DNA of 32,000 nt, taken from assembly GCF_000341895.1 (NCBI RefSeq), contig NC_020409.1:1020001-1052000 (forward strand), given 5' to 3'. The notes under the pieces were generated by a model, which saw only the letters and a program-made list of their open reading frames with translations, ran no database searches and was not told the DNA's origin. The translations under genes were made by a program, and so were the position numbers. This stretch comes from Pseudodesulfovibrio piezophilus C1TLV30. Lineage in GTDB: Bacteria > Desulfobacterota > Desulfovibrionia > Desulfovibrionales > Desulfovibrionaceae. Below, piece by piece: positions 5,484 to 31,690 of this stretch (its first letter is position 1; each line of letters opens with the position of its first letter).

Positions 5484-5618
5484 GGTCTCTCCTTGAAAAT
5501 GATATGAAGTGTCTTCTGAATCGCTGGCTTGACGGCACATGTAGCACTCGTTTGATACGCCGGGCAATATCTTCGCATTATATTTTCCCGGGAAGCCAAC
5601 CTCCTCTTAAGGCCGCGC

Positions 5619-7330: not shown

Positions 7331-9013
7331 ATGCACAGATTTTTCATTCCCCAAACTCTCCCGCCCTGTAGTGGCATACGTCCCGAATTCAGGGAACGTT
7401 TTTCCGGGTGGCACCTCGGCATGGGGCTGCCTGAAACCCTTCTCGCGCTCATCAGAGGGTTAAACGCTCTGGGCAGAGATATCCCCTCGTGTAAAAATAC
7501 CGCTCTCGGAATGGGAGTGTGGGGATTCCAGACCCATCCGCTCATGCATGATCTGGCTCAAGCAGCCGTGGAGACGACCGCAACGGTCAATACGAATCCA
7601 CAACAAAAAGCACTGGCTGAACGGATCGCTGCAACACCAAAGCTCAATGATACAGATACGGAAACCATGGAAACATGGCATGCTCTGGTTAGACAGGAGG
7701 ATCGATCCCTGCTGCTTCGTTTCCTCGCCGTTGTCCTGGCAGACTCGACCAAAGGACTTTCGTGGCTTGGTCACTGTTGGCAGGATATGTTATTTCTCGG
7801 ACGACCTGAGATACCAAAAGCCGCCCTGGACATGGTTCAATGGGATGCCATCACCTTTCCGCTCAAAGCCAGGCTGGAAGCTGAATGGAGCTTTCATTGC
7901 CACCAGCCAGAGCAAGCTCTGCAAGCCATAGAATCGCTCGACTCTGATCTATGGGGACTCTGGCGGGCCTATACCGGGGCAGAAGTGTTGATACGAAGCG
8001 GTGAAACCGAGGAAGCCAAGGAGGTACTCTCCAACCTCTGGAGCATGATTCCGTGGCATATCAATCTGACCCTCAAACTGCACGCCCTCTTCAACCCCAT
8101 TGTCATGGCCGCAGATGAAAAAACAAACGATGCCGCAATCCTCGTTTACTCATGGAATAAAGGAGAATTGCTTGCCCAAACACTCAAAAGTCTCGCCTCC
8201 AGCAATCTCGGGCAAGCCCGAATTTATGCCCTTGATAACGGTTCTACAGACAACACACCCGAAGTTCTCAGACAGGCACAGGATATATTCGGAGCAGAAC
8301 GCTTTCAGACCATAACCCTCCCTGTCAACGTAGGCGCACCTGCTGCACGCAACTGGCTGCTTTCGTTGCCAGCTGTTCGTACGGCTCAATGGGCCGCCTT
8401 TCTTGATGACGATGTTATTCTGCCCAAAGACTGGCTCCTTCATCTACTGGGAGCGGCGCAGGGAGACAAAAAACTCGGTGCGGTTGGCTGCCGCATCACC
8501 GCGGCCACTCCTCCTTTCGGTCTACAATCAGCAGACTACAATCTTTTCCCCACTCCGCCCAAAAAAACTGCACCGGGACACCTTCCCAATCGGGTTCTCC
8601 TGTACGACAATTGTGCCGGATCAACAGATACAGGACTATTCTCGTACACGCGCCCCTGTCTGTCTGTTTCGGGATGCTGCCACCTGATCAATATGGAAGC
8701 TGTTCGCATGGCCGGGGGATTCGACCTACGCTATACGCCATCTCAATTTGATGATCTTGACAGAGACCTCCGTTCTGCGCTGGCAGGGATGCCTGCTCTA
8801 TATACAGGAACCATGGCTATCCATCATGTCCAGCACTCCAGTCTTGCCAAATCAAAAAGTGTGCAGCAGATAGGCCATGTCATGGGCAACAAATTCAAAC
8901 TCGATACTCGATACACCGATGAAGAATTACTCCGGCTTGGTGCTGAAAACCGTGAACGCCTCTGGGATGACCTGCAAACCAAACATGATTTTCTCGCCGC
9001 CCTTCTCGGTTGA
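7331..9013 (+). CDS. Helical TPR-like N-terminal domain fused to a family-2 glycosyltransferase (paralog 3 of 3)
   Basis: Contains LDNGSTDNT, LPVNVGAPAARNWLLSLPAV, FLDDDVILP and FDLRYTPSQFDDLDRDL. It is divergent from paralog 2 across a ~75-nt spacer. Confidence 0.8.
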   Translation: MHRFFIPQTLPPCSGIRPEFRERFSGWHLGMGLPETLLALIRGLNALGRDIPSCKNTALGMGVWGFQTHPLMHDLAQAAVETTATVNTNPQQKALAERIAATPKLNDTDTETMETWHALVRQEDRSLLLRFLAVVLADSTKGLSWLGHCWQDMLFLGRPEIPKAALDMVQWDAITFPLKARLEAEWSFHCHQPEQALQAIESLDSDLWGLWRAYTGAEVLIRSGETEEAKEVLSNLWSMIPWHINLTLKLHALFNPIVMAADEKTNDAAILVYSWNKGELLAQTLKSLASSNLGQARIYALDNGSTDNTPEVLRQAQDIFGAERFQTITLPVNVGAPAARNWLLSLPAVRTAQWAAFLDDDVILPKDWLLHLLGAAQGDKKLGAVGCRITAATPPFGLQSADYNLFPTPPKKTAPGHLPNRVLLYDNCAGSTDTGLFSYTRPCLSVSGCCHLINMEAVRMAGGFDLRYTPSQFDDLDRDLRSALAGMPALYTGTMAIHHVQHSSLAKSKSVQQIGHVMGNKFKLDTRYTDEELLRLGAENRERLWDDLQTKHDFLAALLG

Positions 9014-9074
9014 CCCACACCGGATCCATGCTTACTCTTACCTTGACCAATTCAGTACGAATTAGGAGATAACC

Positions 9075-9398
9075 ATGGACGACGTCAGAATATACGGCGA
9101 TTTTCACCGCATCACTCCAGATATTTTCGAGCAAATCAAGGATGCAATCCCTGTTGATCAGGTTGAGTACGATGGTGATGTGTTACGAATTGACCATGAA
9201 GGGACCTATATCCTGATGGACGACTTTATCGAATTAATCAGTAAGAGACTGCCCGAGGAGGGCTATGGGCATGTCGAATTCATCGACAACCTCGAATGGG
9301 AAGTGACACGGTATACAATAACTCCCGGCAAGATAGAGCACAAGAAAATCAAAGTGGATAATGTCCTCGATGCTCATATGCGTGACCTCGGCATGTAA
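9075..9398 (+). CDS. Hypothetical acidic 107-aa protein, probably co-transcribed with GT2 paralog 3
   Basis: A strong SD AGGAGATAACC precedes the ATG, 61 nt after the paralog 3 stop, and a strong terminator follows. I recognise no family. Confidence 0.65.
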   Translation: MDDVRIYGDFHRITPDIFEQIKDAIPVDQVEYDGDVLRIDHEGTYILMDDFIELISKRLPEEGYGHVEFIDNLEWEVTRYTITPGKIEHKKIKVDNVLDAHMRDLGM

Positions 9399-9414
9399 TC
9401 AAATCTCATTCTCA

Positions 9415-9457
9415 GAAAAAAATAGGCCACCCGAACTCGGGCGGCCTATTTTTTTCT
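9415..9457. terminator. Bidirectional rho-independent terminator
   Basis: ATAGGCCACCCG-AACT-CGGGCGGCCTAT forms a 12-bp stem with one mismatch, flanked by an A7 tract upstream and a T7 tract downstream. It lies between the convergent 9075-9398 (+) and csp (-) genes. Confidence 0.75.
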
Positions 9458-9472
9458 GCTTGCTATAAACAA

Positions 9473-9703
9473 TCAGAAATGAAGTGACTGTGATGCAGCA
9501 TGCATTAGTCTGACATCGACAGCTTTGGGGCCAATCTTCTCATCGACGATATCGAAAGAGACTCGCTCCCCAGCATCCAGGGTCTGGAACCCATCACGTA
9601 TAACTTCGGAATAATTAACAAAGACATCCGATCCATCATCTGCGAGGATGAAACCGAATCCTTTTTGCTCGTTAAACCAACTGACCGTCCCTTCTCGCCG
9701 CAC
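9473..9703 (-). CDS. Cold-shock domain protein (CspA family)
   Basis: GTVSWFNEQKGFGFI (RNP1-like) and DVFVNYS (RNP2-like) are present. I prefer the GTG start at 9703 because GGAGG lies 5 nt upstream. The longer ORF-track start at 9796 and the ATG at 9715 both lack an SD. Confidence 0.85.
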   Translation of the reverse strand: MRREGTVSWFNEQKGFGFILADDGSDVFVNYSEVIRDGFQTLDAGERVSFDIVDEKIGPKAVDVRLMHAASQSLHF

Positions 9704-9736
9704 ACCGACCTCCATGGAATAGGTAGATACGAAGCG

Positions 9737-9765
9737 AAGATAGCCCGATACCATATTCTTGGCAA
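9737..9765 (-). promoter_or_regulatory. Candidate sigma70 promoter for csp
   Basis: On the minus strand, TTGCCA, a 17-nt spacer, then TATCTT, ending ~30 nt upstream of the GTG start. Confidence 0.35.
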
Positions 9766-9798
9766 TCCGGTTTCTCTTAAAAAGGGTTCGAGACAATT

Positions 9799-9957
9799 TT
9801 ACTCAGAAACCGGTCTCTCTGCTTCTTCAGGTATGCCAACACCATCTTCAGCTGTTTCCAGCTTCTTGGCGTCCTTGCGTTTCTGCTTTTCTTCTTTCTT
9901 CTTCTTCTTAGCCATTTCCTTCTGTCGCTTTGCAAACTTATAATTGGGCTTGGCCAA
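9799..9957 (-). CDS. Small Lys/Glu-rich basic protein (52 aa), absent from the ORF track
   Basis: The minus strand reads GGGAGGAAAAT-TTG GCC AAG CCC AAT TAT AAG TTT GCA AAG CGA CAG AAG GAA ATG GCT AAG AAG AAG AAG AAA GAA GAA AAG ... TAA. The product is (M)AKPNYKFAKRQKEMAKKKKKEEKQKRKDAKKLETAEDGVGIPEEAERPVSE, with a strong SD at correct spacing. It sits between two RNA-chaperone-type genes. Confidence 0.4.
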   Translation of the reverse strand: MAKPNYKFAKRQKEMAKKKKKEEKQKRKDAKKLETAEDGVGIPEEAERPVSE

Positions 9958-10002
9958 ATTTTCCTCCCTGTTAAGATGACTTCCGCCTCTGACTGAAAGC
10001 GC

Positions 10003-10043
10003 GGAAAAAGAAAACGCCCGACTCCCGAATGAGAGGCGGGCGT
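10003..10043 (-). terminator. Rho-independent terminator after the RRM protein gene
   Basis: On the minus strand an ACGCCCG...CGGGCGT imperfect hairpin is followed by TTTTCTTTTTCC, 33 nt after the stop at 10076. Confidence 0.6.
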
Positions 10044-10075
10044 AGATGTGCCTGATTGATCAGCAGGTAAAATGC

Positions 10076-10339
10076 TTACCAGCGAGGACGCTCAACACGG
10101 GGTTTGGCTTCGTTGACCTTGATGTTACGGCCACCGAAATCTTTGCCGTCCAGAGCTTCGATAGCATCCAGGTAGCCGTCTTCGGACATTTCGACAAAGC
10201 CGAAACCACGGGGACGACCGGTTTCGCGGTCTTCGATCAACTTAACGGAAGTAACTTCACCATATGCCGCAAACGCTGCACGGACCTCATCTTCAGTTGC
10301 GGACCAGGGCAAATTGCCGACATAAATGTTCTTGGACAT
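10076..10339 (-). CDS. RRM-type (RNP-1) RNA-binding protein, 87 aa
   Basis: NIYVGNL (RNP2) and RGFGFVEM (RNP1) motifs are present. The start is at MSKNIY (ATG 10339) with an AGGAG SD 8 nt upstream. The longer ORF-track start adds an implausible hydrophobic leader. Confidence 0.9.
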   Translation of the reverse strand: MSKNIYVGNLPWSATEDEVRAAFAAYGEVTSVKLIEDRETGRPRGFGFVEMSEDGYLDAIEALDGKDFGGRNIKVNEAKPRVERPRW

Positions 10340-10387
10340 TAAAAAACTCCTAAAGAAAGTGATGTGAAAATGACGCCCGTGCGTCAC

Positions 10388-10433
10388 TATAAAAATAATA
10401 AAAGAAGCAGCGTACACGATGCGCACGCTGCTC
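10388..10433 (-). terminator. Terminator-like hairpin plus U-tract inside the 262-nt spacer upstream of the RRM gene
   Basis: The minus-strand RNA reads GAGCAGCGU-gcgcaucgugu-ACGCUGCUU (8 bp perfect plus a G-U pair) followed by CUUUUAUUAUUUUUAUA. A second small hairpin, UGACGC-ACGG-GCGUCA plus UUUU, lies at 10371-10386. Confidence 0.5.
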
Positions 10434-10601
10434 CTCGATATACCTGTTCATTCAAACCAGCGCCGGCCAACATTCGACCGCGCCTCCACGGGTGCCGCTG
10501 GTGTAGAAACCAACTTATTTGCTATTTATGAAGATAAGTCAAGCAATATAATTTTTTTTATTGTTTAAAAATTACAATGCGCTTTGAGCGGGAAAGAGAT
10601 T

Positions 10602-20507: not shown

Positions 20508-23500
20508 ATGGCCCAGCTTGGTCCCCATATTTCCATATCCGACGAACAACTCATCAGCCGCGCCCTGGGCGTGGTCGAGATGGACCGCTACGAACACTGG
20601 CCCGAAGGCGTCAAGAAGCTCGCCTCGAATCTGGCCGCAGAATTGTTCATGGTGCGATATAATCCCTTTATTGACCCTGAACTGGTCCGCACATCCGTGG
20701 ACCGACGCCTCAATATGTCCAAGCCCATGCTGGACAGGGAATTCGCCAAGATTCTGACCACAGGTATAGAGCTTTTCTGGGAACGCTTCGATGCAGACCA
20801 GAATTTCCGGGCCACGCTCATAGAAGAACTCAAGGAATTCATGCCGGAAGACGGTATTGGTGACGAGCCGAACTGTCGCATCGAATCCGCAACCGATGCC
20901 ACAGATCTCCGCATGGAACTTCCCATGCTCGTGCTCTTTCCTGAAACGGAATACCAGATTCGGGATATCGTCCGCTTGTCCAATGAGATGAACTTCAACG
21001 TCATCCCGCGCGGAGGAGGTACCGGAGCCACAGGCGGAGCCATCCCTGCCCTGGGACGAACCGTCATCCTTTCCCTGTCCCGCTTCAAAAAGATCATTGA
21101 TATCGATCCGGAAAACCGCATTCTGACAGTGCAAAGCGGTGTTATCACCTTGGACGCCATCAAGGCCACAGCCAAAAAGGACCTTCTTTTCACTGTGGAC
21201 CCAGCTTCCAAGGCCGGCTCCAGTCTGGGCGGGAATATCTCTGAAAATGCGGGAGGCCCGTTCGCCTTCGAATATGGCACGACCATAGATAATATCCTTC
21301 GATACCGCATGATCACTCCAACGGGAAATTTGATCGAGGTTCGCCGCAAGGATCATCCGAGACACAAGATTTATAATCAGGACGTAGCTGTCTTTGAAAT
21401 TCTCAATGAACACGGAACCCAGATTGATACGGTAATCCTCAAAGGCAGTGAAATCCGTGGCGAAGGTCTGGGAAAGGACGTTTCCAATAAATATCTCGGG
21501 GGTCTTCCTGGTGTCCAAAAAGAGGGCGTTGACGGAATCATAACCGAAGCAAGCTTCATCTGCTACCCGGCCCTGGCCCATTCTCGTGTGCTCTGCCTGG
21601 AATTCTACGGTCGCTCCATGAAGAACGCCATGTATGTCATCAAGGATGTTGTCGGCCTGCGCGACAAGATTCGGGAGGAAGGCGATCTGGTCAAAATCTC
21701 CGCCCTGGAGGAATTTGGTTCCAAATACGTCCAGGCCATAGAATATCAGGCAAAATCCACTCAGTATGAAGGTGACCCCATTTCCGTGCTGATACTCCAA
21801 CTCGACTCGGATGATCAGGAAGCGCTTGATGCCGCGAGCCAAACCATCGTCGCATTGGCTCAACCTTACGAGGGTGTTGATATCTTCACGGCTCAAGACG
21901 AAAAAGAGGCCGAACTGTTCTGGGAAGACAGACACAAACTGTCTGCCATTTCCAAACGCACATCAGGCTTCAAGATCAATGAGGACGTGGTCATCCCCAT
22001 GGAAGTCATTCCGGAATTCTCCGAGTTCCTTGAAGACTTGAACCTCATCTATCTTGCCAAAATATACCGGAAGACCCTGCACAAGGTTCGGGATATGAAA
22101 GGCGTTAATTACGAGGACGAGGATATACGGGAAGCATTGGCCCGCGCCCGTTCCATTATTGACGGCGAGGTTACCTCAAACGATTTCTCGGATCAGGAAC
22201 AAGAAGCCCAGTGCCGCTTCCTGTTTGTCAAACTCCGCGACAGTTATCCGAAACTCGACCGGGAAATAAACGCCATGTGGCATGAAATGCAGGCCAAACG
22301 CATTATCATCGCCAATCATATGCATGCCGGAGACGGCAACTGTCACGTCAACCTGCCCGTCAATTCCAATGACCCGGAGATGCTTGCATCGGCGCATGAA
22401 GCAGCTGATGAAGTCATGACCAAAGTTTTGGAAATGGGTGGCGAGGTTTCTGGTGAGCATGGCATCGGCATTACCAAAATAGCCTTCCTGAGCGAGGAAA
22501 AAATCAAGGCCCTGGTCGAATACAAGAGCAAGGTTGACCCGAAAGATATTCTCAATCCCGGAAAATTGACTTCTCGCAAACTCCCTTGTGAGCCGTTTAC
22601 ATTCTCATTCAACCGACTCATTCAGGACCTTGATGCAACTGCCCTGCGGGATAAGGAAGCCCTCATGAGCCTGTTGCGCAACATCCAAACCTGTACCCGT
22701 TGCGGCAAGTGCAAACAGGTCTGTCCCATGTACCATCCGGCCAAGGGGCTGATGTATCACCCGCGCAACAAGAATATCTCGTTGGGTGCTATTATTGAGG
22801 GAATCTACTATTCTCAAATCCAATCGGGAGAACCCGCGCGCGAACTAATGGTTCAATTACAGGACCTCATGGCCCATTGTACAGCTTGCGGCAAGTGTCA
22901 GGCTGTATGCCCGGTCAAGATAGACTCGGCAGGGTCTGCGCTTTCCATGCGTGCCTTCCTCGATACCAAGGGCAAGTCAGGTCATCCGCTCAAACAAATC
23001 ATTCTCAAGAACCTGGCTAAAAATCCTTCAGGCAGTCTCCCGGTCACGGCCAAGCTCCTGTCTGTCGGCCAATCTGTGCAGGACAAGACCCTGGGGATGA
23101 TTCCTGCGCGGTGGCTCTCACGCGTCGAGTCGCCCATGTTCAAACACCGCAGCCCCGGTATGGACTTCAAGAATCTTGCTGAAGAACTGAAGCTCGAATC
23201 CGGCTCGATCTTCCGCAATCCCAAGGCAGCACGAGACGAAACAGTTCTGTACTTCCCTGGGTGTGGGGCATCACTCTTCTCTCGCTCCATCGGGTTGGCT
23301 TCAGTCTACCTGTTGCTCAAATCCGGTGTGAACGTGGTTTTGCCGGACCACCACATGTGCTGTGGTTATCCCCTGCTCGCTAGCGGTTGCGAAGAAGCAT
23401 ACAAAACCAACAGACATCGCAATGTGCAGGAATTCCTGGACCTCCTGGTTAAAACAGGTAAAGCAGGACTCAAGGCAACAACTTTGTTGACGGCCTGCGG

Positions 23501-24038
23501 GACATGCCGCGAATCGTTACAAACATATGATTTCTCAGGTGAACTAGTAGAACCACTTGCTCACTACGACGTGATGCAGTTCCTCATGGACAGGCTCCCG
23601 CCCATGAGTCAGACCGAACCGGTTCTCTACCACTCTTCGTGCCATGCCGAGTGGGTGGATGCTCCCAAGGTCAAAGCCCCGGAGATGTATCGCTCCGGAC
23701 TTGAAAAAATGACCAACACAACTGTGGATCTTTCTCCCGGCTGTTGTGGGGAATCCGGTCTTGGAGCATTGACAGACCCGACCATTTACAATTTGTTGCG
23801 CGAAAGAAAACAGTCACAGATGCAGTCGGACCTCGGCATGGACCAGACCAGACCTATTGTAGTCGGATGCCCTTCATGCAAGGTCGGCATCAAACGCTCC
23901 ATGCTCCAGATGAAGCGTTCGAACCGAGTCATGCATACCTCGGAATACCTGGCCGAATGCATTGGCGGAAAGAAATGGCGCAAGGAACTTAAGGGGTTGA
24001 TGAAATCGATCGAAAGAAAAGGCGCTGACAACTCATAG
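20508..24038 (+). CDS. Large FAD-linked oxidase fused to a 2x[4Fe-4S] / CCG-domain Fe-S oxidoreductase (GlcD-GlcF fusion, YdiJ-like), 1176 aa
   Basis: It has a PCMH-type FAD domain (VIPRGGGTGATGG) and an FAD-oxidase C-terminal region (HAGDGNCHVN, GEHGIG). Two ferredoxin motifs follow (CTRCGKCKQVCP and CTACGKCQAVCP), then two Cys-rich CCG-type repeats (FPGCGAS...MCCG and SSCH...GCCGESG). Confidence 0.9.
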   Translation: MAQLGPHISISDEQLISRALGVVEMDRYEHWPEGVKKLASNLAAELFMVRYNPFIDPELVRTSVDRRLNMSKPMLDREFAKILTTGIELFWERFDADQNFRATLIEELKEFMPEDGIGDEPNCRIESATDATDLRMELPMLVLFPETEYQIRDIVRLSNEMNFNVIPRGGGTGATGGAIPALGRTVILSLSRFKKIIDIDPENRILTVQSGVITLDAIKATAKKDLLFTVDPASKAGSSLGGNISENAGGPFAFEYGTTIDNILRYRMITPTGNLIEVRRKDHPRHKIYNQDVAVFEILNEHGTQIDTVILKGSEIRGEGLGKDVSNKYLGGLPGVQKEGVDGIITEASFICYPALAHSRVLCLEFYGRSMKNAMYVIKDVVGLRDKIREEGDLVKISALEEFGSKYVQAIEYQAKSTQYEGDPISVLILQLDSDDQEALDAASQTIVALAQPYEGVDIFTAQDEKEAELFWEDRHKLSAISKRTSGFKINEDVVIPMEVIPEFSEFLEDLNLIYLAKIYRKTLHKVRDMKGVNYEDEDIREALARARSIIDGEVTSNDFSDQEQEAQCRFLFVKLRDSYPKLDREINAMWHEMQAKRIIIANHMHAGDGNCHVNLPVNSNDPEMLASAHEAADEVMTKVLEMGGEVSGEHGIGITKIAFLSEEKIKALVEYKSKVDPKDILNPGKLTSRKLPCEPFTFSFNRLIQDLDATALRDKEALMSLLRNIQTCTRCGKCKQVCPMYHPAKGLMYHPRNKNISLGAIIEGIYYSQIQSGEPARELMVQLQDLMAHCTACGKCQAVCPVKIDSAGSALSMRAFLDTKGKSGHPLKQIILKNLAKNPSGSLPVTAKLLSVGQSVQDKTLGMIPARWLSRVESPMFKHRSPGMDFKNLAEELKLESGSIFRNPKAARDETVLYFPGCGASLFSRSIGLASVYLLLKSGVNVVLPDHHMCCGYPLLASGCEEAYKTNRHRNVQEFLDLLVKTGKAGLKATTLLTACGTCRESLQTYDFSGELVEPLAHYDVMQFLMDRLPPMSQTEPVLYHSSCHAEWVDAPKVKAPEMYRSGLEKMTNTTVDLSPGCCGESGLGALTDPTIYNLLRERKQSQMQSDLGMDQTRPIVVGCPSCKVGIKRSMLQMKRSNRVMHTSEYLAECIGGKKWRKELKGLMKSIERKGADNS

Positions 24039-25765: not shown

Positions 25766-26899
25766 TCAAGCGTGTTTCTGATACCCATGAGACAATGCAT
25801 GGAGTTTCTCTCCAGCCTTGAGTCCATGTCCTGTAAAGACTGTGACAATGCTCTCACCCGAACGAGCACTCTCTCCATATCGAGTTGCACCGGCAATAAC
25901 AGCAGCCGAAGTAGGTTCGATACAGTAGCCCCGCCGCCCCATATCATTCAAGGCAGTGTGAATCTCCCCTTCGCTCACAGACAGGAACATGCCGTCTGAA
26001 CAACGTACCGCATCAAGCATTTGAGGACCACGCACAGGAGCAGCTATCGCTATTCCTTCGGCTAGGGTTGGCAGGGTGTTGACCTCTGAAACCAATTCCT
26101 GCCCTCTCTCAAAGGCATGAGACAAAGGTGCACAGTGAGCCGACTGCACGGCAATCAGCCGAGGGATCGATGTAATGATTCCCAATTCTGCCAATTCGGA
26201 AAATCCAAAGAATGCACCAAGCAGAAGGGTTCCATTACCAGCCGGGAGCACCACGGTATCCGGACCTTTCCAACCAAGTTGCTCAACGACTTCATAGGCA
26301 AAGGTTTTGGTTCCATGAAAAAAATACGGATTATAGACATGGCTGGCGTAAAAGGTACTTGCGGCAGCGCGCATGCAGGCTGAAGCTGTTTCTTCCCGAC
26401 TTCCTTCCACCCGAACAAGATCCGCCCCATACAATTCTATCTGCCCCAATTTTCCGGGAGAATTATCCGCAGGGACAAAAATGCGACAGGCAATTCCCGC
26501 CTTGGCGCAGTAGGCGGCAACGCTGCACCCGGCATTACCTGAAGAATCTTCCACAACCTTGAGAACCCCCAGATGCCGAGCCATGGCTATCATCACCGAA
26601 GCTCCCCGATCCTTATATGAACCGGTAGGAGAAAGTTGTTCCTGCTTGACCCACATTTCCCGATGACCAACGACAACTGGCAGCAGAGGGGTCATTCCTT
26701 CCCCCAAAGTTAATTCCACACCATCAGGCACAGGAAGCGCCTCACGATACCGCCAAAGCGTCGCAGGCCGGGAGCTGACATCATCAGGATCCAGAGAAGG
26801 CGTGAAGTCAAGATCGAGAAGCCCTTCACAGTCGCATTGCCAACGCAGTTCATTCCCTGCGTACTCCTTGCCGCAGGAACGGCACACTAATGATGTCAT
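25766..26899 (-). CDS. Threonine-synthase-like PLP-dependent (fold type II) enzyme with an N-terminal Cys4 ribbon
   Basis: It carries CRSCG...CDC, LGEGMTPLL, the SPTGSYKDRG PLP-lysine motif and SSGNAGCSVAAY. It is the last gene of a four-gene minus-strand operon. Confidence 0.8.
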   Translation of the reverse strand: MTSLVCRSCGKEYAGNELRWQCDCEGLLDLDFTPSLDPDDVSSRPATLWRYREALPVPDGVELTLGEGMTPLLPVVVGHREMWVKQEQLSPTGSYKDRGASVMIAMARHLGVLKVVEDSSGNAGCSVAAYCAKAGIACRIFVPADNSPGKLGQIELYGADLVRVEGSREETASACMRAAASTFYASHVYNPYFFHGTKTFAYEVVEQLGWKGPDTVVLPAGNGTLLLGAFFGFSELAELGIITSIPRLIAVQSAHCAPLSHAFERGQELVSEVNTLPTLAEGIAIAAPVRGPQMLDAVRCSDGMFLSVSEGEIHTALNDMGRRGYCIEPTSAAVIAGATRYGESARSGESIVTVFTGHGLKAGEKLHALSHGYQKHA

Positions 26900-26956
26900 C
26901 GTATTCTCCCTCTTGTGAATACCCTATCTTCAAACAGGAAAACACCTTTAAACGTG

Positions 26957-27976
26957 TCACGCCGCCGGAATATAGTCTCGCCCGAGAGCAAGACCACGGC
27001 TCTCGAGGAATGAAATGATATCCCCCCGAGCACCTCGACTGGCAACGTATGGGATGCAAAATCCTTCTCCCGGCGCCGGTATGGTCGAGCGGTCGCGAAC
27101 CTCAATACCATGAACCACATGGCCTATCTTTCGGGGATCAATGTCATAATAGGCGGCAAAGGTTATCCCGTAGTCAAGCAAAAGATCTGCGCGCTTACGG
27201 GTAACACGCCCGGCTCCTAGGATATGGACACAGGGGTGATGCGGATTATTCCGTTCGAGCCAGCGCGCCAGATATTCAGTCTTGATGCGGTAAAACGCCT
27301 CCACATCGTACCGAGGATGATTTCGGGACAAACGACTTGGCGGGTCATTCCAAACAAGAAGATCCTCATCCACCTTGGCCATCACAACTCCGCCTTCCAG
27401 CCACCGAAGCAACAGATCGTAATCCTCAGGGAAATCACCATCGCGATACCCTCCATGAACGTCCAGGCATTCCCGCCGGAACATGATTGACGGATTCGGT
27501 ACAGGAAATTCCACAAATCTATGCAACTGAATGGATTCAGGAGTCAAAAGCGTATTGGTCCAATCCACATAATGGGCATACCCGGCACTCTGCTCTCTGC
27601 ATCCGCCAAATCGAACTCGACATCCCACCAACCCCAAGGAAGGGTCAGAGTCGAGCAAACGGGACTGTGCAGCCAACCGGTTCGGGAGGGCCAGGTCATC
27701 GGCATCCATACGGGCCAGATACATACCGCGAGCGGTTGCGAGCGCGGTATTGGCTGCGGTAACAACACCACCATGCAAACTCGTAACCACTCGAATACGG
27801 GAATCCCGGCCTGCATATTCAGCCAGAACTCCCGCAGTCGTATCAGTACTTCCGTCATCTACGGCCACCACTTCGAAATCCGCCATGGTCTGGGCGAGCA
27901 GGCTTTCCAGCGCGGCCCCGACAGTATCCCCACAATTATAGCAGGGTATGGTGACGGAAATCTTCGGCGTGCTCAT
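26957..27976 (-). CDS. Family-2 glycosyltransferase (SpsA-like N-terminal domain) with a ~110-aa C-terminal Rossmann-like extension
   Basis: ISVTIPCYNCGDTV...VAVDDGSTDTT...ARMDADD (DxD) marks the GT2 domain. The C-terminal ILGAGRVTRKRADLLLDYGITFAAYYDIDPRKIGHVVHGIEV resembles the NeuD/PglD-type N-terminal nucleotide- or CoA-binding module. The start lies 4 nt after the upstream stop. Confidence 0.8.
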   Translation of the reverse strand: MSTPKISVTIPCYNCGDTVGAALESLLAQTMADFEVVAVDDGSTDTTAGVLAEYAGRDSRIRVVTSLHGGVVTAANTALATARGMYLARMDADDLALPNRLAAQSRLLDSDPSLGLVGCRVRFGGCREQSAGYAHYVDWTNTLLTPESIQLHRFVEFPVPNPSIMFRRECLDVHGGYRDGDFPEDYDLLLRWLEGGVVMAKVDEDLLVWNDPPSRLSRNHPRYDVEAFYRIKTEYLARWLERNNPHHPCVHILGAGRVTRKRADLLLDYGITFAAYYDIDPRKIGHVVHGIEVRDRSTIPAPGEGFCIPYVASRGARGDIISFLESRGLALGRDYIPAA

Positions 27977-27980
27977 TTTG

Positions 27981-28910
27981 TTACAATCCTTCTACTGTGG
28001 CAGCGGCCTTTTTAGTGGCTACGGATTCCTTTATTCGACAAATGGAACATCTCCCCACACTCGTGGGAGAGCCACATTCTTTACAGGGTTTCAACTCAGC
28101 TCCGATCTCTTTCTCAAGATTGGCAAAGGCCTGTTTACCACGCTGAAGGAACCCCTGATAAAACTGAAACTTCTGACCAGGACTACGATATTCCAACTCC
28201 CCCCACAATTCCTTGTGGTTGGTAAAACTGGCTCCTGAAGAATATGGGCAAGGGTCCGAATGTATCTCGATACCCTTCAAAAATGCATAGTTGGCAGTCT
28301 CGAATTCAGTCAGCCGAAAAAGCGGTTTGACCTTGCGAACAAAACCGTCGGCAGCGGGCAAAACCGGTCCCTGATCGGAAAGGTACGCTGTATCCCACCG
28401 AAGTGTATTGGCAAAAAGGCGTGCGACTTCGTCATCCAGGTTATGCCCAGTAGCCAGTGCATCATAGCCCCCTTCCCTCGCTATGCGGTTAAAATGATGC
28501 CGCTTCATCTTGCCGCACACGGCACAGACAGGCCGATCGACGTGCTCTTTGATATCACAAACAGGTAGACCCCATTTCTCCATCTCGAAGACGTCCAATT
28601 TCAGATCCTGCGCATCGCAAAAGTTCTCGACTTTCTTACGGGCCTTATAAGACGAATCAGGAATGCCAAGATCAATATGCAACCCTGTGACGTCATATCC
28701 CTGCAATTTGAGTTCGAGCATCAAGCCCAGCGAATCCTTGCCACCAGACAGAGCGACAAGAATACGCTCATCCTTGGTAAACATCTTTTCGCGGCGAATA
28801 GCGGTTTCAACCTGGCGGGTAAAAAACAACGGAAAACATTCAGGACAAAACCCGGCGTGATGACTCGGAAGAGCGACGCACGCAAGTTTTTTGCAACGAG
28901 AGCATTTCAT
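27981..28910 (-). CDS. PP-loop ATP pyrophosphatase of the TtuA/Ncs6/TtcA type (sulfurtransferase-like)
   Basis: It has an N-terminal Zn finger (CSRC...CPEC) and the PP-loop SGGKDS. Fe-S ligand-like Cys are present (CAVCGKMKRH and DPCPYS), with a C-terminal Zn finger (CKECG...CSIC). Confidence 0.8.
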   Translation of the reverse strand: MKCSRCKKLACVALPSHHAGFCPECFPLFFTRQVETAIRREKMFTKDERILVALSGGKDSLGLMLELKLQGYDVTGLHIDLGIPDSSYKARKKVENFCDAQDLKLDVFEMEKWGLPVCDIKEHVDRPVCAVCGKMKRHHFNRIAREGGYDALATGHNLDDEVARLFANTLRWDTAYLSDQGPVLPAADGFVRKVKPLFRLTEFETANYAFLKGIEIHSDPCPYSSGASFTNHKELWGELEYRSPGQKFQFYQGFLQRGKQAFANLEKEIGAELKPCKECGSPTSVGRCSICRIKESVATKKAAATVEGL

Positions 28911-28923
28911 GTGTATAGACTCC

Positions 28924-29121
28924 TTACCCGGCTGAGGTTACTTTGCGAACCAACAGAGTATCGCCGTTGCTTAATTTCCGATCTGCGGTCAGCAATTCGC
29001 CATCGCGAGCGACAAGAGCCATTGTTGAACGAAGTTTGAGTCGATTGAGGACCGCAAGCACGCTCCTGACGTTGGGAATCTCGATGGTCTTTCCATCAGG
29101 TTCCAGATGAACGATTACCAT
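28924..29121 (-). CDS. ThiS/MoaD-like ubiquitin-fold protein (65 aa) ending in Ala-Gly
   Basis: The size and pattern fit ThiS-type beta-grasp carriers: hydrophobic beta1 MVIVHLE, then DG...L...GD.L.V...V with a terminal G. SD AAAGGAG is present. It lies 13 nt upstream of the PP-loop ATPase gene. Confidence 0.6.
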   Translation of the reverse strand: MVIVHLEPDGKTIEIPNVRSVLAVLNRLKLRSTMALVARDGELLTADRKLSNGDTLLVRKVTSAG

Positions 29122-29292
29122 GATATTTTTCTCCTTTCCGCCAGCCTTATTGAATACCGGCGGGTTGGTCGGACCCTACTGATGATGGACTCCAAGTTCA
29201 AGGAGAGAAACAGGGAACAGGCATGGTCAATGAAGCAACCACAAGGTTTTTTGGCCGAGTGTTAGAATCTGGGCAAAAAAAGTGAAACCGTA

Positions 29293-29322
29293 TTGACCCA
29301 AAAGAGAAATATCGAGTAGAGT
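29293..29322 (+). promoter_or_regulatory. Candidate sigma70 promoter for the receiver-domain gene
   Basis: TTGACC, an 18-nt spacer, then TAGAGT, ~30 nt upstream of the ATG at 29353. Confidence 0.3.
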
Positions 29323-29352
29323 GAATTAAGGTAAATTCCCAAGGAGGATTCC

Positions 29353-29724
29353 ATGAGCCAACCGAAGATTCTCGTTGTCGACGACGAAAAGCACATACGG
29401 ATGCTCTACAGAGAAGAACTGGAGGCCGACGGCTATACGGTCGCCACTTCAGACGGCGAGGAGGACATTCTTGATGTCATAGGCCGAGAAGGTCCAACCA
29501 TCGTGATTCTTGATATCAAACTCGGCGTCAATCGCTCGGGGCTGGACTTGCTCCAGGAGATTCGCGCCAAGGACCAGACCATACCGGTCATACTCTCCAC
29601 AGCATACGACTCCTTCCAGCACGACCTCAAATCCATTGCAGCCGACTACTACGTGGTCAAGTCCGTGGATCTCACCGAACTCAAAGACAAAGTCCGTATG
29701 GCTCTGAACAAAGCCGGTAGTTAA
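29353..29724 (+). CDS. Stand-alone response-regulator receiver (CheY-like) protein
   Basis: It has the acidic pocket VVDDE, the phospho-acceptor ILDIKL, then LSTAYD and VVKS (conserved T/S and K). SD AAGGAGG is present. Confidence 0.88.
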   Translation: MSQPKILVVDDEKHIRMLYREELEADGYTVATSDGEEDILDVIGREGPTIVILDIKLGVNRSGLDLLQEIRAKDQTIPVILSTAYDSFQHDLKSIAADYYVVKSVDLTELKDKVRMALNKAGS

Positions 29725-29986: not shown

Positions 29987-30955
29987 TTGGCACAAAGCAA
30001 CAATGCTGAATATGTTCCCATCTCTCCCCTGGTCCTGAGACCGGATACCAAAGGTCAATTCGACATATTCCTGCGGCGTGGCACCAACTACGTCCTCTTC
30101 AATGCGAACTCTCTTGTCATTACACGCGACAAGATTCAAGAGTTGGCACACAATGAAAATCCGCATCTCTACATAGATAGACAGGGACTGGACCACTACA
30201 AGCGTTACATTCAGGAAAATATAGCTGATCTTCTTGACGATGACAGTGTTGCCCCGGAAGAACGGGCCAAGGCATGGGCTGGCACTGCCACACAGCTTGG
30301 TAAAGAACTTTTTGAAAAATCGCTCCCTGGCAGAACTTTTGAACGCAGATTTCAACGGTTCACCAAACTGATTGAAAATTCGAGCAGGTTCCTTCAATCT
30401 CCCAAGTCACTCAAAGAGCTTTCCCGGTTCATCAGTAAAGGATATGAAGCATATCATCATGGTATTTCAACCATGGTATATACTGTCAGCCTGATGCAGG
30501 AATACGATTATGACGATGCCAAAATTCTCGCCTGCGGCATGGGAGCCATGCTGCACGACATAGGCAAGACCGGATTACCAAAAGAAGTCGTGGAAAGCCC
30601 CCACGAAGATTTGACCGATGAGCAAAAGGAACTGTTTGTCCTGCACCCCATGATCGGTGCGAGAACGTGCTCTGCCTTCAACCTGCCCACAGCCGCGTCC
30701 AACTGCATCCTGTTCCACCATGAACGGGAAGACGGAACCGGGTACCCCACCAAAGCAAAGGGCAGTGAACTCCCCATCCACACCAAAATTCTCGCCCTTT
30801 GCAACGTCTATGACAACCTGACCCGGACAACACGCCATGACAAAGCACTCACTCCATTCAACGCACTCAAGCGGATCATGGATGATGAAGGGCTGGTGGA
30901 TAAATCAATTCTCAAAAAATTCGTTGAAATGCTTTCACGGGCAGAAATTGTTTAA
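29987..30955 (+). CDS. HD-GYP domain protein (putative c-di-GMP phosphodiesterase) with an uncharacterised N-terminal domain
   Basis: HDIGK and HHEREDGTGYP motifs are present. The TTG start is preceded by AGGAGG at 5 nt. Confidence 0.9.
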   Translation: MAQSNNAEYVPISPLVLRPDTKGQFDIFLRRGTNYVLFNANSLVITRDKIQELAHNENPHLYIDRQGLDHYKRYIQENIADLLDDDSVAPEERAKAWAGTATQLGKELFEKSLPGRTFERRFQRFTKLIENSSRFLQSPKSLKELSRFISKGYEAYHHGISTMVYTVSLMQEYDYDDAKILACGMGAMLHDIGKTGLPKEVVESPHEDLTDEQKELFVLHPMIGARTCSAFNLPTAASNCILFHHEREDGTGYPTKAKGSELPIHTKILALCNVYDNLTRTTRHDKALTPFNALKRIMDDEGLVDKSILKKFVEMLSRAEIV

Positions 30956-31009: not shown

Positions 31010-31690
31010 ATGGTAGCCGACCTCATGTTTGATATCTTTTCACCAGACGCGCTTGAACGCTACGTTATCCTCGCGCCGGGCTTGCTGATAGCCTTGGTCG
31101 CCCATGAAGTCGCTCATGGCTATGTCGCTTACCTTCTGGGGGATCCAACAGCTCAATCTCAGGGCCGCCTGACGCTCAATCCTCTCAAACATCTTGACCC
31201 CATCGGGACGCTTGCCTTTTTCTTCGTTCACTTTGGCTGGGCCAAGCCGGTTCCGGTGAATCCTCGATACTTCAAGGATGTTCGCTTCGGGATGCTGCTT
31301 ACAGCCATTGCCGGTCCGGGCGTAAATTTCATACTGGCTGCGGTGTTCGCCATAGTTATGCATATTCTCACGACCATACAGTTCCAATCAGGGACACTCT
31401 GGGAATCGATTATTGTCCCATTCTATCTGATTTGCCAGGCTGGGGTATACGTCAATCTGATCCTTGGCATTTTCAATCTGATCCCCATACCGCCTCTGGA
31501 CGGCAGTAACGTTCTGGCATACTTTCTTCCTCCGCGGATAGCGCAGCTGTACATGAGCCTGAGCCGATATGGGTTCATTGTGCTCATCGGCCTCATCCTT
31601 ATTGGACAATATTCCGGCTACAGCCTTATCGGCCAAGTAATTTTCCCACTGGTTCGCGGATCGGCTGCCCTCCTGGGCATTAACCTGTAA
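31010..31690 (+). CDS. Site-2 protease family (M50) integral-membrane zinc metalloprotease
   Basis: It has the HEVAHG (HExxH) motif, LNPLKHLDPIGT, NLIPIPPLDG and multiple TM helices. The start may instead be the ATG at 31025. Confidence 0.8.
   Translation: MVADLMFDIFSPDALERYVILAPGLLIALVAHEVAHGYVAYLLGDPTAQSQGRLTLNPLKHLDPIGTLAFFFVHFGWAKPVPVNPRYFKDVRFGMLLTAIAGPGVNFILAAVFAIVMHILTTIQFQSGTLWESIIVPFYLICQAGVYVNLILGIFNLIPIPPLDGSNVLAYFLPPRIAQLYMSLSRYGFIVLIGLILIGQYSGYSLIGQVIFPLVRGSAALLGINL

Follow-up and report, generated by a model that had tools for sequence, protein, structure and literature searches.

A probable tRNA-modification cluster with a QTGAL-like glycosyltransferase beside an unrelated ThrC-like gene in Pseudodesulfovibrio piezophilus

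Four adjacent genes in the 32,000-nt stretch of Pseudodesulfovibrio piezophilus DNA analysed here (the window) are best read as a composite locus, in which a tRNA-modification cluster, made of a thiolation pair and a QTGAL-like glycosyltransferase, would lie next to an unrelated ThrC-like gene (probability about 0.6). This reading is built on observed motifs and homologies, on the order of the genes and on synteny statistics; all biochemical activities named for the four proteins are predicted from these.

Layout of the locus and the thiolation pair

The minus-strand genes encode, from first to last, a carrier of 65 aa (28924-29121), a TtuA-type PP-loop enzyme of 309 aa (27981-28910), a glycosyltransferase (GT2) of 339 aa (26957-27976) and a ThrC-like PLP enzyme of 377 aa (25766-26899), all with ATG starts in the ORF list. 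The ORF coordinates agree with the four minus-strand genes of the preliminary description and with its gaps of 13 nt (28911-28923), 4 nt (27977-27980) and 57 nt (26900-26956), and Pfam and NCBIfam scans reproduced its domain calls for all four proteins. Shine-Dalgarno-like sequences lie 5′ of the first and last genes, those of the carrier and the ThrC-like enzyme, and the 57-nt spacer (26900..26956, minus strand) holds a AGAGGGAG ribosome-binding site 5′ of the latter. No terminator pattern was found in this spacer, and no convincing terminator anywhere between the four genes, where pattern counts are at background level. Because no terminator was found between them, the genes may well be co-transcribed in P. 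piezophilus.

The carrier gene and a CheY-like response-regulator gene point away from each other, and the intergenic region between them (29122..29352) is presumably a promoter region; it has one promoter-like match (plus strand, 29293-29322), a count at background level. Most loci with the ThiS-TtuA pair have the response-regulator gene on its upstream side, in most of them divergently oriented. As had been stated earlier, the window lacks E1 (ThiF/MoeB), rhodanese and JAMM proteins, none of which turned up when every larger ORF was scanned with Pfam. In Thermus, the E1 and rhodanese partners of TtuA-TtuB are likewise not known to be linked. In Desulfovibrio sp. PCE-4, the carrier-ttuA pair is preceded by two rhodanese genes.

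TtuA-TtuB of Thermus thermophilus (TtuA also of Thermotoga maritima and Pyrococcus horikoshii) performs 2-thiolation of (ribo)thymidine-54 in tRNA. The carrier and the PP-loop enzyme had been suspected to follow this logic, and the comparison holds: the small carrier gene is immediately upstream of the PP-loop enzyme gene, 30+ Desulfovibrionales genomes keep the pair, and the enzyme can be matched to solved TtuA structures over its full length.

The enzyme (27981..28910, minus strand), a predicted [4Fe-4S]-dependent tRNA 2-thiouridine synthetase, consists of TtuA_LIM_N and PP-loop domains. Full-length alignments reach E 1.2e-64 against P. horikoshii TtuA PH0300 and about 7e-60 against the TtuA chains 5gha/5ztb and 5b4e/5b4f, as against only 7e-25 with the archaeal U34 thiolase. 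Like TtuA, it carries a CxxC...CxxC zinc finger near each end (Cys 3, 6, 22, 25 and 276, 279, 288, 291), three [4Fe-4S] cluster cysteines (129, 132, 221), the PP-loop S55-GGKDS, and K136, which aligns with the catalytic Lys137 of Thermus TtuA. Among the NCBIfam models TtuA fits best, with 247 bits against an equivalog cut-off of 450.

The TtuB-like small sulfur-carrier protein (28924..29121, minus strand; pI about 10) ends in ...S-A-G. Its match to the ThiS family is weak (19.6 bits vs the Pfam cut-off of 22.5), and its best PDB sequence matches are the TtuB chains 5ztb_E (E 0.018) and 5gha_E (E 0.042). The single-sequence AF2 model is of low confidence (pLDDT 58), with a strand/helix order compatible with a β-grasp fold. 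The 30 carrier orthologues located immediately upstream of ttuA share an S-x-G terminus whose last Gly is invariant, whereas Gly-Gly occurs at the end of 0/30.

Three features differ from TtuA-TtuB and count against this assignment: the TtuA score below the cut-off, a carrier terminus of S-x-Gly instead of Gly-Gly, and host organisms that to our knowledge are not thermophiles, whereas m5s2U54 has been described as typical of thermophiles.

We consider TtuA/TtuB-type tRNA thiolation likely for the pair. An E1-type enzyme whose gene lies elsewhere would convert the terminal Gly of the carrier to a thiocarboxylate. TtuA would adenylate C2 of a tRNA uridine, and its [4Fe-4S] cluster would take sulfur from the carrier and deliver it to form 2-thiouridine, as TtuB-COSH is captured by the TtuA [4Fe-4S] cluster in the described mechanism (PMC7138817). 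By analogy, the target may be (m5)s2U54.

Homology of the glycosyltransferase to QTGAL

The third gene (26957..27976, minus strand) encodes a soluble two-domain protein, which is a candidate tRNA glycosyltransferase. Glycos_transf_2 (PF00535, E 9e-29) covers residues 7-170 and is followed by about 120 C-terminal residues without Pfam match. The GT-A (GT2) catalytic domain extends over residues 1 to about 220 (27317..27976, minus strand) and contains D91-A-D93-D94, while a Rossmann-like basic domain (pI 8.8) spans residues about 245-339 (26960..27244, minus strand) with the motifs G-A-G-R-x-T-R-K-R and Y-D-I-D-P-x-K-I. The AF2 model has a pLDDT of 96.5. Foldseek matches to SpsA, chondroitin polymerase, RmlT and TarP cover the GT-A part only, and no PDB structure covering the C-terminal domain was found.

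The earlier label of a GT2 with a Rossmann extension was right, and homology to vertebrate B3GNTL1/QTGAL runs through the entire protein. Identity to B3GNTL1 (P0391) is 27% over residues 6-317 (BLASTP, E 1e-20), and profile-profile comparison with hhalign aligns the two end to end over 323 columns (probability 99.9%, E 5.1e-35). The C-terminal domain alone matches that of B3GNTL1 with a probability of 97% (E about 1e-10). Both proteins have a GT2/GT-A domain with DxDD followed by the Rossmann-like domain over their full length. D93 and D94 correspond to D115 and D116 of QTGAL and do not vary among 43 family members. The Rossmann-like domains share G-x-G-(K/R)-x-x-R-(K/R) and (Y/F)-x-D-(I/V)-D-x-x-K-I, and the motifs GC(R/Q)VR, Y-x-x-W-x-N and PED are also common to both proteins. 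A membrane anchor is absent from both, the bacterial protein being the one checked here (no hydrophobic or TM segment). Unlike QTGAL, the protein has a bacterial host, and identity is only 25-27%. By these homologies, it is a bacterial counterpart of vertebrate QTGAL (B3GNTL1).

B3GNTL1 is named 'queuosine-tRNA galactosyltransferase' by NCBI, and QTGAL uses UDP-galactose to form galQ (galQ34) on tRNA-Tyr (bioRxiv 10.64898/2026.06.28.735034; PMC11705514). We tentatively propose, at somewhat less than even odds, that the bacterial protein also acts on tRNA. With a nucleotide sugar as donor, it would glycosylate a tRNA nucleoside, and its acceptor would most plausibly be the cyclopentenediol of queuosine-34. 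At 25-27% identity, acceptor specificity of glycosyltransferases is not reliably inherited.

The main competing explanation is that the protein is an ordinary glycosyltransferase of sugar metabolism or glycoconjugate synthesis, whose acceptor would be a small molecule, a lipid or a protein, so that its adjacency to ttuA would be an inherited order without function and its likeness to QTGAL would reflect only common ancestry of fold and appended domain. The low identity fits this explanation, as do the public annotations, which all read just 'glycosyltransferase' (including that of the 100% identical Pseudodesulfovibrio piezophilus protein). The family is widespread across phyla, and in the loci examined outside Desulfovibrionales no recognisable tRNA-modification or tRNA gene was found beside it. 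Some neighbours are sugar-related, namely GFO/IDH/MocA oxidoreductases, GHMP kinase and RmlB/RmlD, the last in Solidesulfovibrio-type loci. On the other hand, QTGAL shares the whole two-domain architecture and family-specific motifs beyond the DxD region, the protein is cytoplasmic, soluble and not embedded in polysaccharide clusters in the loci examined, those outside Desulfovibrionales show no conserved partner, and several genera preserve its place beside a tRNA enzyme. We regard an ordinary glycosyltransferase as a serious but somewhat unlikely explanation.

The ThrC-like neighbour

The last gene (25766..26899, minus strand), a lineage-specific neighbour, encodes a divergent ThrC-fold PLP enzyme (PALP, E 1.6e-70) with an N-terminal Cys-rich ribbon. 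Like the solved ThrCs of M. tuberculosis, B. subtilis, T. thermophilus and A. aeolicus, it belongs to the fold-type II PLP enzymes and has the lysine motif S-(F/Y)-K-D-R-G; it aligns with these ThrCs over about 320 residues (E 1e-37 to 1e-44), keeping the PLP lysine (K96). Unlike ThrC, it has the extra ribbon of about 45 residues, and GSRE(D/E) in place of GNFDD. Its motifs SSGNAG, SH(S/V)(W/Y)NP and FFHGTKT contrast with STGNT, NSVNP and R(L/I)EGQKT in 4/4 solved bacterial ThrCs. T88, N154 and R160 of T. thermophilus ThrC, which reportedly contact the phosphate (Omi et al. 2003), are conserved in all four solved enzymes but replaced by A123, H187 and F193 here, and the same Ala, His and Phe occur in 30/30 family members examined. 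The altered phosphate pocket argues against the enzyme being a classical threonine synthase that uses O-phosphohomoserine, and makes doubtful the earlier suggestion of this compound as its substrate.

The same replacements speak against this gene being the organism's housekeeping threonine synthase, of the Zn-ribbon archaeal/Thermotoga-like type and downstream by chance. Such an identity is suggested by the best NCBIfam models, all 'threonine synthase' and all just under their cut-offs (275 vs 303; TIGR00260, 151.7 vs 167.1), by relatives annotated as 'threonine synthase', by retention of the PLP-binding lysine and most fold motifs, and by one relative near a ThrE-type exporter. However, the named relatives among the best 120 matches skip from Pseudodesulfovibrio to Anaerolineae and unclassified MAGs, which hints at an accessory gene rather than a vertically inherited core gene. 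In addition, the gene often has ridA just before it, and the RidA pairing suggests that the enzyme releases an enamine or imine. The housekeeping role is thus improbable.

Synteny and the extent of the cluster

Synteny was examined in 80 genome loci anchored on GT2, with the ThrC-like gene scored within 8 kb. The carrier-ttuA-GT2 order is kept in 24 Desulfovibrionales genomes of several genera, with gaps of 4-105 nt or overlap; ttuA is thus directly upstream of GT2 in 24 of the 80 loci, separated from it by a small insert but of like orientation in six, and inverted in two. In the latter kind of arrangement (L002 and L022), GT2 is on the strand opposite to ttuA and follows a response-regulator gene instead. 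Another 34 of the 80 loci lack ttuA although at least 2 kb of upstream DNA is present. Since every ttuA-linked locus belongs to one order, Desulfovibrionales, the linkage may have arisen once and been inherited.

One could conceive that the carrier, TtuA and the QTGAL-like enzyme act in sequence on one nucleoside, giving a glycosylated thionucleoside in tRNA or other RNA, with the sugar on, or dependent on, the thiolated base. The conserved order, tolerating small insertions, would accord with this, but the 34 loci without TtuA include every locus titled with a phylum outside the Desulfovibrionales group, and the opposite-strand position in L002 and L022 is also unfavourable. Moreover, the acceptor of QTGAL is a queuosine hydroxyl, so that thiolation is not required (bioRxiv 10.64898/2026.06.28.735034). 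We hold such a three-step pathway to be quite unlikely.

The ThrC-like gene is near GT2 in only 1/80 loci (L003), where RidA intervenes, so the four genes do not form a conserved unit. A cassette of RidA, ThrC-like enzyme and S26 signal peptidase is found in L003, L083 and L084. In P. mercurii (strain ND132, locus L084) and P. cashew, whose loci were reached via the ThrC-like protein and not via the GT2 anchor, the gene sits in a RidA-ThrC-like-signal-peptidase cassette with RidA between it and GT2, and in P. cashew three further genes separate this cassette from GT2. In sister species, ridA occupies the position of the 57-nt spacer. No ridA gene was found in the P. piezophilus window, which gives the appearance of a four-gene operon. 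The ThrC-fold gene would be an unrelated neighbour that travels with ridA in a variable region of sister species.

Carriers paired with fold-type II PLP enzymes do exist: CysO-CysM (M. tuberculosis) and HcyS-MetY (Wolinella) serve thiocarboxylate-dependent synthesis of Cys and homocysteine, respectively. As in these systems, one gene string in the window encodes both a PLP enzyme and a small carrier of ubiquitin fold. Unlike in them, the carrier is conserved beside TtuA and not beside the PLP enzyme, which is of ThrC fold and not of CysM/MetY type and comes without JAMM protease or E1. The ThrC-like family is never beside a carrier in the loci examined elsewhere, and in four other lineages its neighbours are varied and unrelated, with no ThiS/MoaD or other sulfur-related gene found next to it.

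The four genes are thus very probably not one pathway. The single uncharacterised sulfur-carrier pathway of the preliminary description, in which a thiocarboxylated carrier would feed both the PP-loop and ThrC-like enzymes and GT2 would glycosylate a product or substrate (thiosugar, thionucleoside or thio-amino acid conjugate), can draw on the tight same-strand spacing without terminator pattern, the CysO-CysM and HcyS-MetY precedent, and two JGI metagenome contigs with the same four-gene arrangement and an identical ThrC-like protein, but is highly improbable given the 79/80 genomes in which the ThrC-like gene does not adjoin the cluster, the intervening ridA, the absence of sulfur neighbours elsewhere, the occurrence of GT2 in many phyla without carrier or TtuA, and its specific homologue acting on tRNA.

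In the composite reading, GT2 directly after ttuA in Desulfovibrionales would represent a shared tRNA-modification operon, in which one class of substrate receives two modifications independently of each other. The QTGAL homology thereby explains a glycosyltransferase beside a tRNA thiolase without a thiosugar or a carrier-dependent amino-acid pathway; among the products first considered, a modified RNA nucleoside is favoured and a thiosugar becomes needless. A 2026 compendium of bacterial RNA modifications lists no glycosylated nucleoside, and no paper describing bacterial QTGAL homologues was found in the literature searched. Given that no report of bacterial tRNA glycosylation was found there either, its prediction is the interesting and testable part of this analysis.

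Four genes and their order across genomes

Four minus-strand ORFs, each with an ATG start, follow one another at spacings of 13, 4 and 57 nt, and the ORF listing reproduces exactly the spacings in the preliminary description. They encode a 65-aa carrier with a weak ThiS-family match (28924-29121), a 309-aa PP-loop enzyme with TtuA_LIM_N and PP-loop domains (27981-28910), a 339-aa glycosyltransferase, GT2, with a Glycos_transf_2 domain and a C-terminal third without assignment (26957-27976), and a 377-aa PLP enzyme with a PALP domain, for which the best NCBIfam model, 'threonine synthase', stays below its threshold (25766-26899). Pfam and NCBIfam agree with the earlier calls of a ThiS-like carrier, a TtuA-type PP-loop enzyme, an extended GT2 and a ThrC-like PLP enzyme, and none of the larger ORFs of the window, all scanned with Pfam, encodes an E1, a rhodanese or a JAMM protein, in line with the earlier remark. 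A P. piezophilus protein is 100% identical to GT2.

Good ribosome-binding sites lie ahead of the first and the last of the four genes, and no terminator pattern was found to separate them. Promoter and terminator scans gave background-level counts and allow no firm statement on transcription units. No tRNA gene or Rfam family was found in the window, and no tgt or que gene is among its Pfam-annotated ORFs.

Gene order was compared in a GT2-anchored scan with one genome per species, which returned at least 594 stretches encoding a relative, from many phyla. The best 80 of these were taken with 8-kb flanks each; the window proteins were compared with them by tblastn, and their ORFs were chosen by conservation-weighted selection. 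A TtuA-like gene lies directly upstream of GT2 in 24 of the 80 loci; in 6 it shares the strand of GT2 but is separated from it by a small extra gene, and in 2 it has the opposite orientation. By tblastn, the carrier gene of 65 aa precedes the TtuA-like gene in 31 of these 32 loci, and at the remaining one (L017) it was recovered by ORF clustering. All loci with the carrier-ttuA pair are titled as Desulfovibrionales genera or as unclassified Deltaproteobacteria, Proteobacteria or Thermodesulfobacteriota MAGs. Of the 80 loci, 34 lack TtuA although all of them extend 2 kb or more upstream of GT2, and among them are all those titled Lentisphaerae, Rokubacteria, Acidobacteria, Balneolaceae, Kiritimatiellales, Ignavibacteria, Bacteroidetes and Limnocylindria.

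Other genes recur around the pair. A stand-alone CheY-like response regulator and an M50 peptidase (29353-29724 and 29987-30955, both plus strand) accompany it in most pair loci, and an HD-GYP-type gene (31010-31690, plus strand) does so in some. The CheY-like gene holds its position even where the carrier-ttuA pair is inverted (loci L002 and L022). In one sub-clade, a gene of about 130 aa (family F26) is inserted between ttuA and GT2 (L020:6363-6752; likewise in L021, L023, L027 and L032), and the L020 copy, the sole one scanned, is a DUF3568 protein. Farther away in the window, a 1176-aa fusion of a GlcD-like FAD-linked oxidase with Fe-S dicluster and CCG domains (20508-24038, plus strand) is conserved near this site in several Desulfovibrionaceae loci among those examined.

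The carrier and PP-loop pair

In a PDB search, the 309-aa protein aligns with solved TtuA structures from residue 1 to about 295, with E-values of 1.2e-64 for P. horikoshii PH0300 and about 7e-60 for the TtuA chains 5gha/5ztb and 5b4e/5b4f, as against only 7e-25 for the archaeal U34 thiolase. It is nearer to TtuA than to NcsA in both comparisons made, with 206-222 bits for TtuA chains versus 91 bits for NcsA in the PDB search, and 247 bits for TtuA, 100 for NcsA and 71 for TtcA in NCBIfam. Pfam TtuA_LIM_N scores 30.3 bits, over its 27-bit cut-off. The score against the equivalog NF049949 is 247 bits where 450 are required, but that model was built on Pyrococcus-type sequences, so that the low score reads as divergence and is compatible with TtuA membership.

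The catalytic motifs are in place. The PP-loop motif SGGxDS is present as S55-G-G-K-D-S, aligned with that of PH0300; zinc-finger cysteines occur at both ends (3, 6, 22 and 25; 276, 279, 288 and 291); and the three [4Fe-4S] ligands, C129, C132 and C221, fall on the CxxC and CP motifs of PH0300. K136, within C-A-V-C-G-K-M-K, is in register with Lys137 of Thermus TtuA, which helps to release sulfur from TtuB-COSH (PMC7138817).

The evidence from the carrier itself is fainter. Pfam ThiS gives 19.6 bits, under the 22.5 cut-off, the best PDB matches are TtuB chains at a weak E of 0.018, and a single-sequence AF2 model is of low confidence (pLDDT 58), with secondary structure in the order beta-beta-alpha-beta-beta-beta. 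Orthologues lie upstream of ttuA in 30 genomes. All 30 (from loci L001-L079) end in S-x-Gly, encoded here at 28924-28932, with an invariant terminal Gly and with V, A, T, R, L or S as the penultimate residue; Gly-Gly occurs in none of the 30. These Desulfovibrionales carriers thereby differ from ThiS, MoaD, TtuB and Urm1, which have the canonical Gly-Gly tail. As the carboxylate of the terminal Gly is the chemically required part, this tail is compatible with a carrier function.

With all TtuA motifs, an end-to-end match and an adjacent carrier gene, the TtuB-TtuA logic proposed earlier for these two genes holds up, and from sequence the pair is read as a TtuB/TtuA-type tRNA 2-thiolation system. 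The modified position would by analogy be U54, as in TtuA. The Desulfovibrionales genera that carry such a system are not known to be thermophiles.

Desulfovibrio sp. PCE-4 has, immediately ahead of its carrier-ttuA-GT2 cluster and in the opposite orientation, two genes for rhodanese-domain proteins and one for a TauE-type exporter (L001:5713-6540; likewise in L010), which are possible sulfur-relay partners.

A QTGAL-like glycosyltransferase

GT2 belongs to a family of about 335 residues with 1,802 representatives at E ≤ 1e-30 in a library of 50%-identity representatives, and most of the best 150 are full-length (330-345 residues). Its GT-A domain matches PF00535 at E 9e-29. AF2 models the protein with very high confidence (pLDDT 96.5), there is no hydrophobic segment, and an acidic N-terminal domain (pI 5.0) is joined to a basic C-terminal one (pI 8.8). 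PDB sequence and Foldseek searches with GT2 returned only generic GT-A enzymes over about 220-260 residues, leaving the C-terminal domain unmatched, and no solved QTGAL structure is known for comparison. In a phage collection searched in protein mode, only partial GT-A matches were obtained and none at full length.

The C-terminal domain finds its counterpart in QTGAL (B3GNTL1), the vertebrate queuosine-tRNA galactosyltransferase. A search with the B3GNTL1 sequence gave a 100% identical database entry, P0391, along with many entries named 'queuosine-tRNA galactosyltransferase' by NCBI. GT2 aligns with P0391 over residues 6-317 at 27% identity (E 1e-20). When a profile of 43 diverse bacterial members was aligned with one of 11 mammalian QTGALs by hhalign, the probability was 99.9% (E 5.1e-35, 323 columns) and the alignment ran from the first strand through the last residues. 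The C-terminal Rossmann-like domains of about 100 residues, compared by themselves, still gave 97% (E about 1e-10). D91-A-D93-D94 of GT2 is aligned with D113-S-D115-D116 of human B3GNTL1, and beyond this DxD motif both families have GC(R/Q)VR, Y-x-x-W-x-N and PED, followed in the C-terminal domain by a basic G-x-G-(K/R)-x-x-R-(K/R) loop, (Y/F)-x-D-(I/V)-D-x-x-K-I and a terminal G-x-D-(F/Y). The architecture of QTGAL, in which a GT-A domain is followed by a C-terminal domain of distinctive type, is thus shown to be common among bacteria.

The glycosylated queuosines galQ and manQ have been described in animals. Their writer enzymes were reportedly identified only in 2023, the original QTGAL paper being that of Zhao et al. 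in Cell in that year. With UDP-galactose as donor, QTGAL attaches galactose to one of the hydroxyls of queuosine-34 on tRNA-Tyr (bioRxiv 10.64898/2026.06.28.735034), and galQ is absent from organisms without a QTGAL gene (PMC11705514). Galactosylation of queuosine-34 is known for vertebrate QTGAL only. Glycosylated nucleosides do not appear in a 2026 compendium of bacterial RNA modifications, and literature searches found no paper on bacterial QTGAL/B3GNTL1 homologues, nor one that combines TtuA, threonine synthase and a glycosyltransferase.

Does the bacterial enzyme act on tRNA? We give this a probability of about 0.4, on the grounds that the two-domain homology is specific to QTGAL, that the protein is soluble and cytoplasmic, that its gene lies outside polysaccharide clusters and has no recurrent partner across phyla, and that its place immediately after a tRNA thiolase gene is conserved in several genera. 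An ordinary glycosyltransferase that has simply inherited its neighbourhood is a somewhat less probable alternative. On the limiting side, identity between the bacterial GT and QTGAL is only 25-27%, and the linkage to TtuA is confined to one order, so that all TtuA-linked GT2 loci may count as a single evolutionary event. The tight neighbours of GT2 in other phyla are also heterogeneous and in part sugar-related (GFO/IDH/MocA oxidoreductases, a GHMP kinase), and RmlB/RmlD and a SpoU methylase occur near it in Solidesulfovibrio-type loci. Partners were sought by clustering all ORFs from 82 loci (the 80 of the scan, L001 and L002) and by running Pfam on 117 ORFs from the flanks and on 20 neighbours in tight linkage on the same strand; outside Desulfovibrionales these comparisons yielded no recurrent GT2 partner or tRNA-modification gene, only scattered sugar-related or regulatory genes.

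Action on tRNA is our working reading for GT2. Its wider form, that bacteria have a widespread family of tRNA glycosyltransferases which is the source or the sister of animal QTGAL and is co-expressed with TtuA/TtuB in Desulfovibrionales, is put forward tentatively.

In the Solidesulfovibrio-type loci (L039, L044, L051, L054, L058 and L081), the SpoU-family RNA methylase, RmlB and RmlD genes lie upstream of GT2, and an antisense hybrid histidine kinase gene stands between these SpoU/dTDP-rhamnose pathway genes and GT2. Three further ORFs of 539-560 aa in the window (3262-4881, plus; 5619-7256, minus; 7331-9013, plus) each have some 250 residues without a Pfam match and then, starting at about residue 245-270, a GT2 domain; they look like paralogous unusual glycosyltransferases. 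Between the third of them and an ABC ATPase gene, the region 9001-10600 has the lowest G+C of the window (0.456) and is almost without long ORFs.

The ThrC-like enzyme in a variable region

The preliminary description had suggested that all four genes form one uncharacterised sulfur-carrier pathway with a glycosylated product or substrate. As a conserved unit, on which the description itself had made this proposal depend, the four genes fail, since a ThrC-like gene lies within 8 kb of GT2 in just 1 of the 80 loci (L003, from a sister species). Loci of P. karagichevae, P. mercurii and P. cashew, reached via the ThrC-like protein, have a ridA-ThrC-like-signal-peptidase cassette downstream of GT2; in P. 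cashew three further genes intervene, and in P. mercurii ridA overlaps the start of the ThrC-like gene. The RidA (Ribonuc_L-PSP) gene stands right ahead of the ThrC-like gene in all three sister-species loci (L083:6618-7001; L084:6612-7004, P. mercurii, with the overlapping start; L003:9079-9489). The window holds neither ridA nor an S26 peptidase gene, so the 57-nt juxtaposition of GT2 and the ThrC-like gene is a peculiarity of P. piezophilus.

Four further lineages were examined, in which the ThrC-like gene neighbours an alanine racemase gene, EPSP synthase and ThrE genes, a DUF2807 gene or a DUF2064-GT2 fusion, and no carrier or sulfur gene was found near it. The last case, from an unrelated metagenomic lineage, places the ThrC-like gene 37 nt downstream of the 477-aa fusion (L088:3531-4964 and 5001-6128), a second, independent GT2/ThrC-like juxtaposition with a different glycosyltransferase.

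The 377-aa protein has a clear PLP-enzyme fold (PALP, E 1.6e-70), aligns with threonine synthases of solved structure (E 1e-37 to 1e-44), and retains the Schiff-base lysine, K96 in S-Y-K-D-R-G, aligned with K61 of T. thermophilus ThrC. Its best listed homologue, besides an identical database record, is 77% identical. It stays under all curated ThrC cut-offs (PRK08197, 275 vs 303; PRK06450, 259 vs 301; TIGR00260, 151.7 vs 167.1).

Thirty family members from several phyla were aligned with four solved bacterial ThrCs. S-T-G-N-T of the solved enzymes is S-S-G-N-A in the family (T88 to A123), N-S-V-N-P is S-H-x-x-N-P (N154 to H187), N-P-x-R-x-E-G-Q-K-T is N-P-F-F-F-H-G-T-K-T (R160 to F193), and G-N-F-D-D, with no residue number attached, is G-S-R-E-(D/E). 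Ala123, His187 and Phe193 are invariant in 30/30 members, and all three sites are conserved in the four solved ThrCs. T88, N154, S155, R160 and N188 of T. thermophilus ThrC hold the phosphate of O-phosphohomoserine, an assignment reportedly made by Omi et al. in 2003; a numbering check found that the residue types at these positions agree with it. The family retains N188, as N222, and has V or S at position 155.

With three residues of this reported phosphate pocket replaced and sub-threshold scores, the enzyme probably does not use O-phosphohomoserine as had been supposed. A role as the organism's only threonine synthase is the less likely alternative. The replaced residues, the scores below the ThrC cut-offs and the ridA gene ahead of it in sister species point instead to a ThrC-fold enzyme that has diverged, whose substrate is probably not O-phosphohomoserine, and that has no connection with the carrier. 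The pairing with ridA suggests that a divergent enzyme of this kind releases a reactive enamine or imine. A cysteate synthase or CysM-like role was dropped, as there is no conserved sulfur context and three ThrC phosphate-pocket residues are replaced.

Linkage of carrier and PLP enzyme, proposed on the model of CysO-CysM and HcyS-MetY, occurs in this genome only, plus the three sister species with ridA between, and is absent from the other loci compared. In those known systems, by contrast, the linkage is conserved and often comes with E1 and JAMM genes, neither of which is in the P. piezophilus window. The apparent link between sulfur carrier and ThrC-like enzyme is a false lead, an accident of gene order in one genome, and the ideas of a thiosugar and of a carrier-dependent amino-acid pathway found no support.

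The locus is best read as a TtuB/TtuA-type thiolation pair, a QTGAL-like glycosyltransferase that possibly modifies tRNA, and an unrelated PLP enzyme in a variable region. The TtuAB pair would be a known kind of system, and the function of the bacterial QTGAL-like family is predicted from homology. The locus documents a TtuA/TtuB-type system with a non-Gly-Gly carrier in Desulfovibrionales genera. In this one order, a GT2 gene kept directly behind a tRNA thiolase gene offers a concrete test case for bacterial tRNA glycosylation, and the bacterial family is also relevant to how the animal enzyme arose in evolution. If the prediction is true, glycosylated queuosine or another glycosylated tRNA nucleoside, so far described in animals, would occur in many bacterial phyla.
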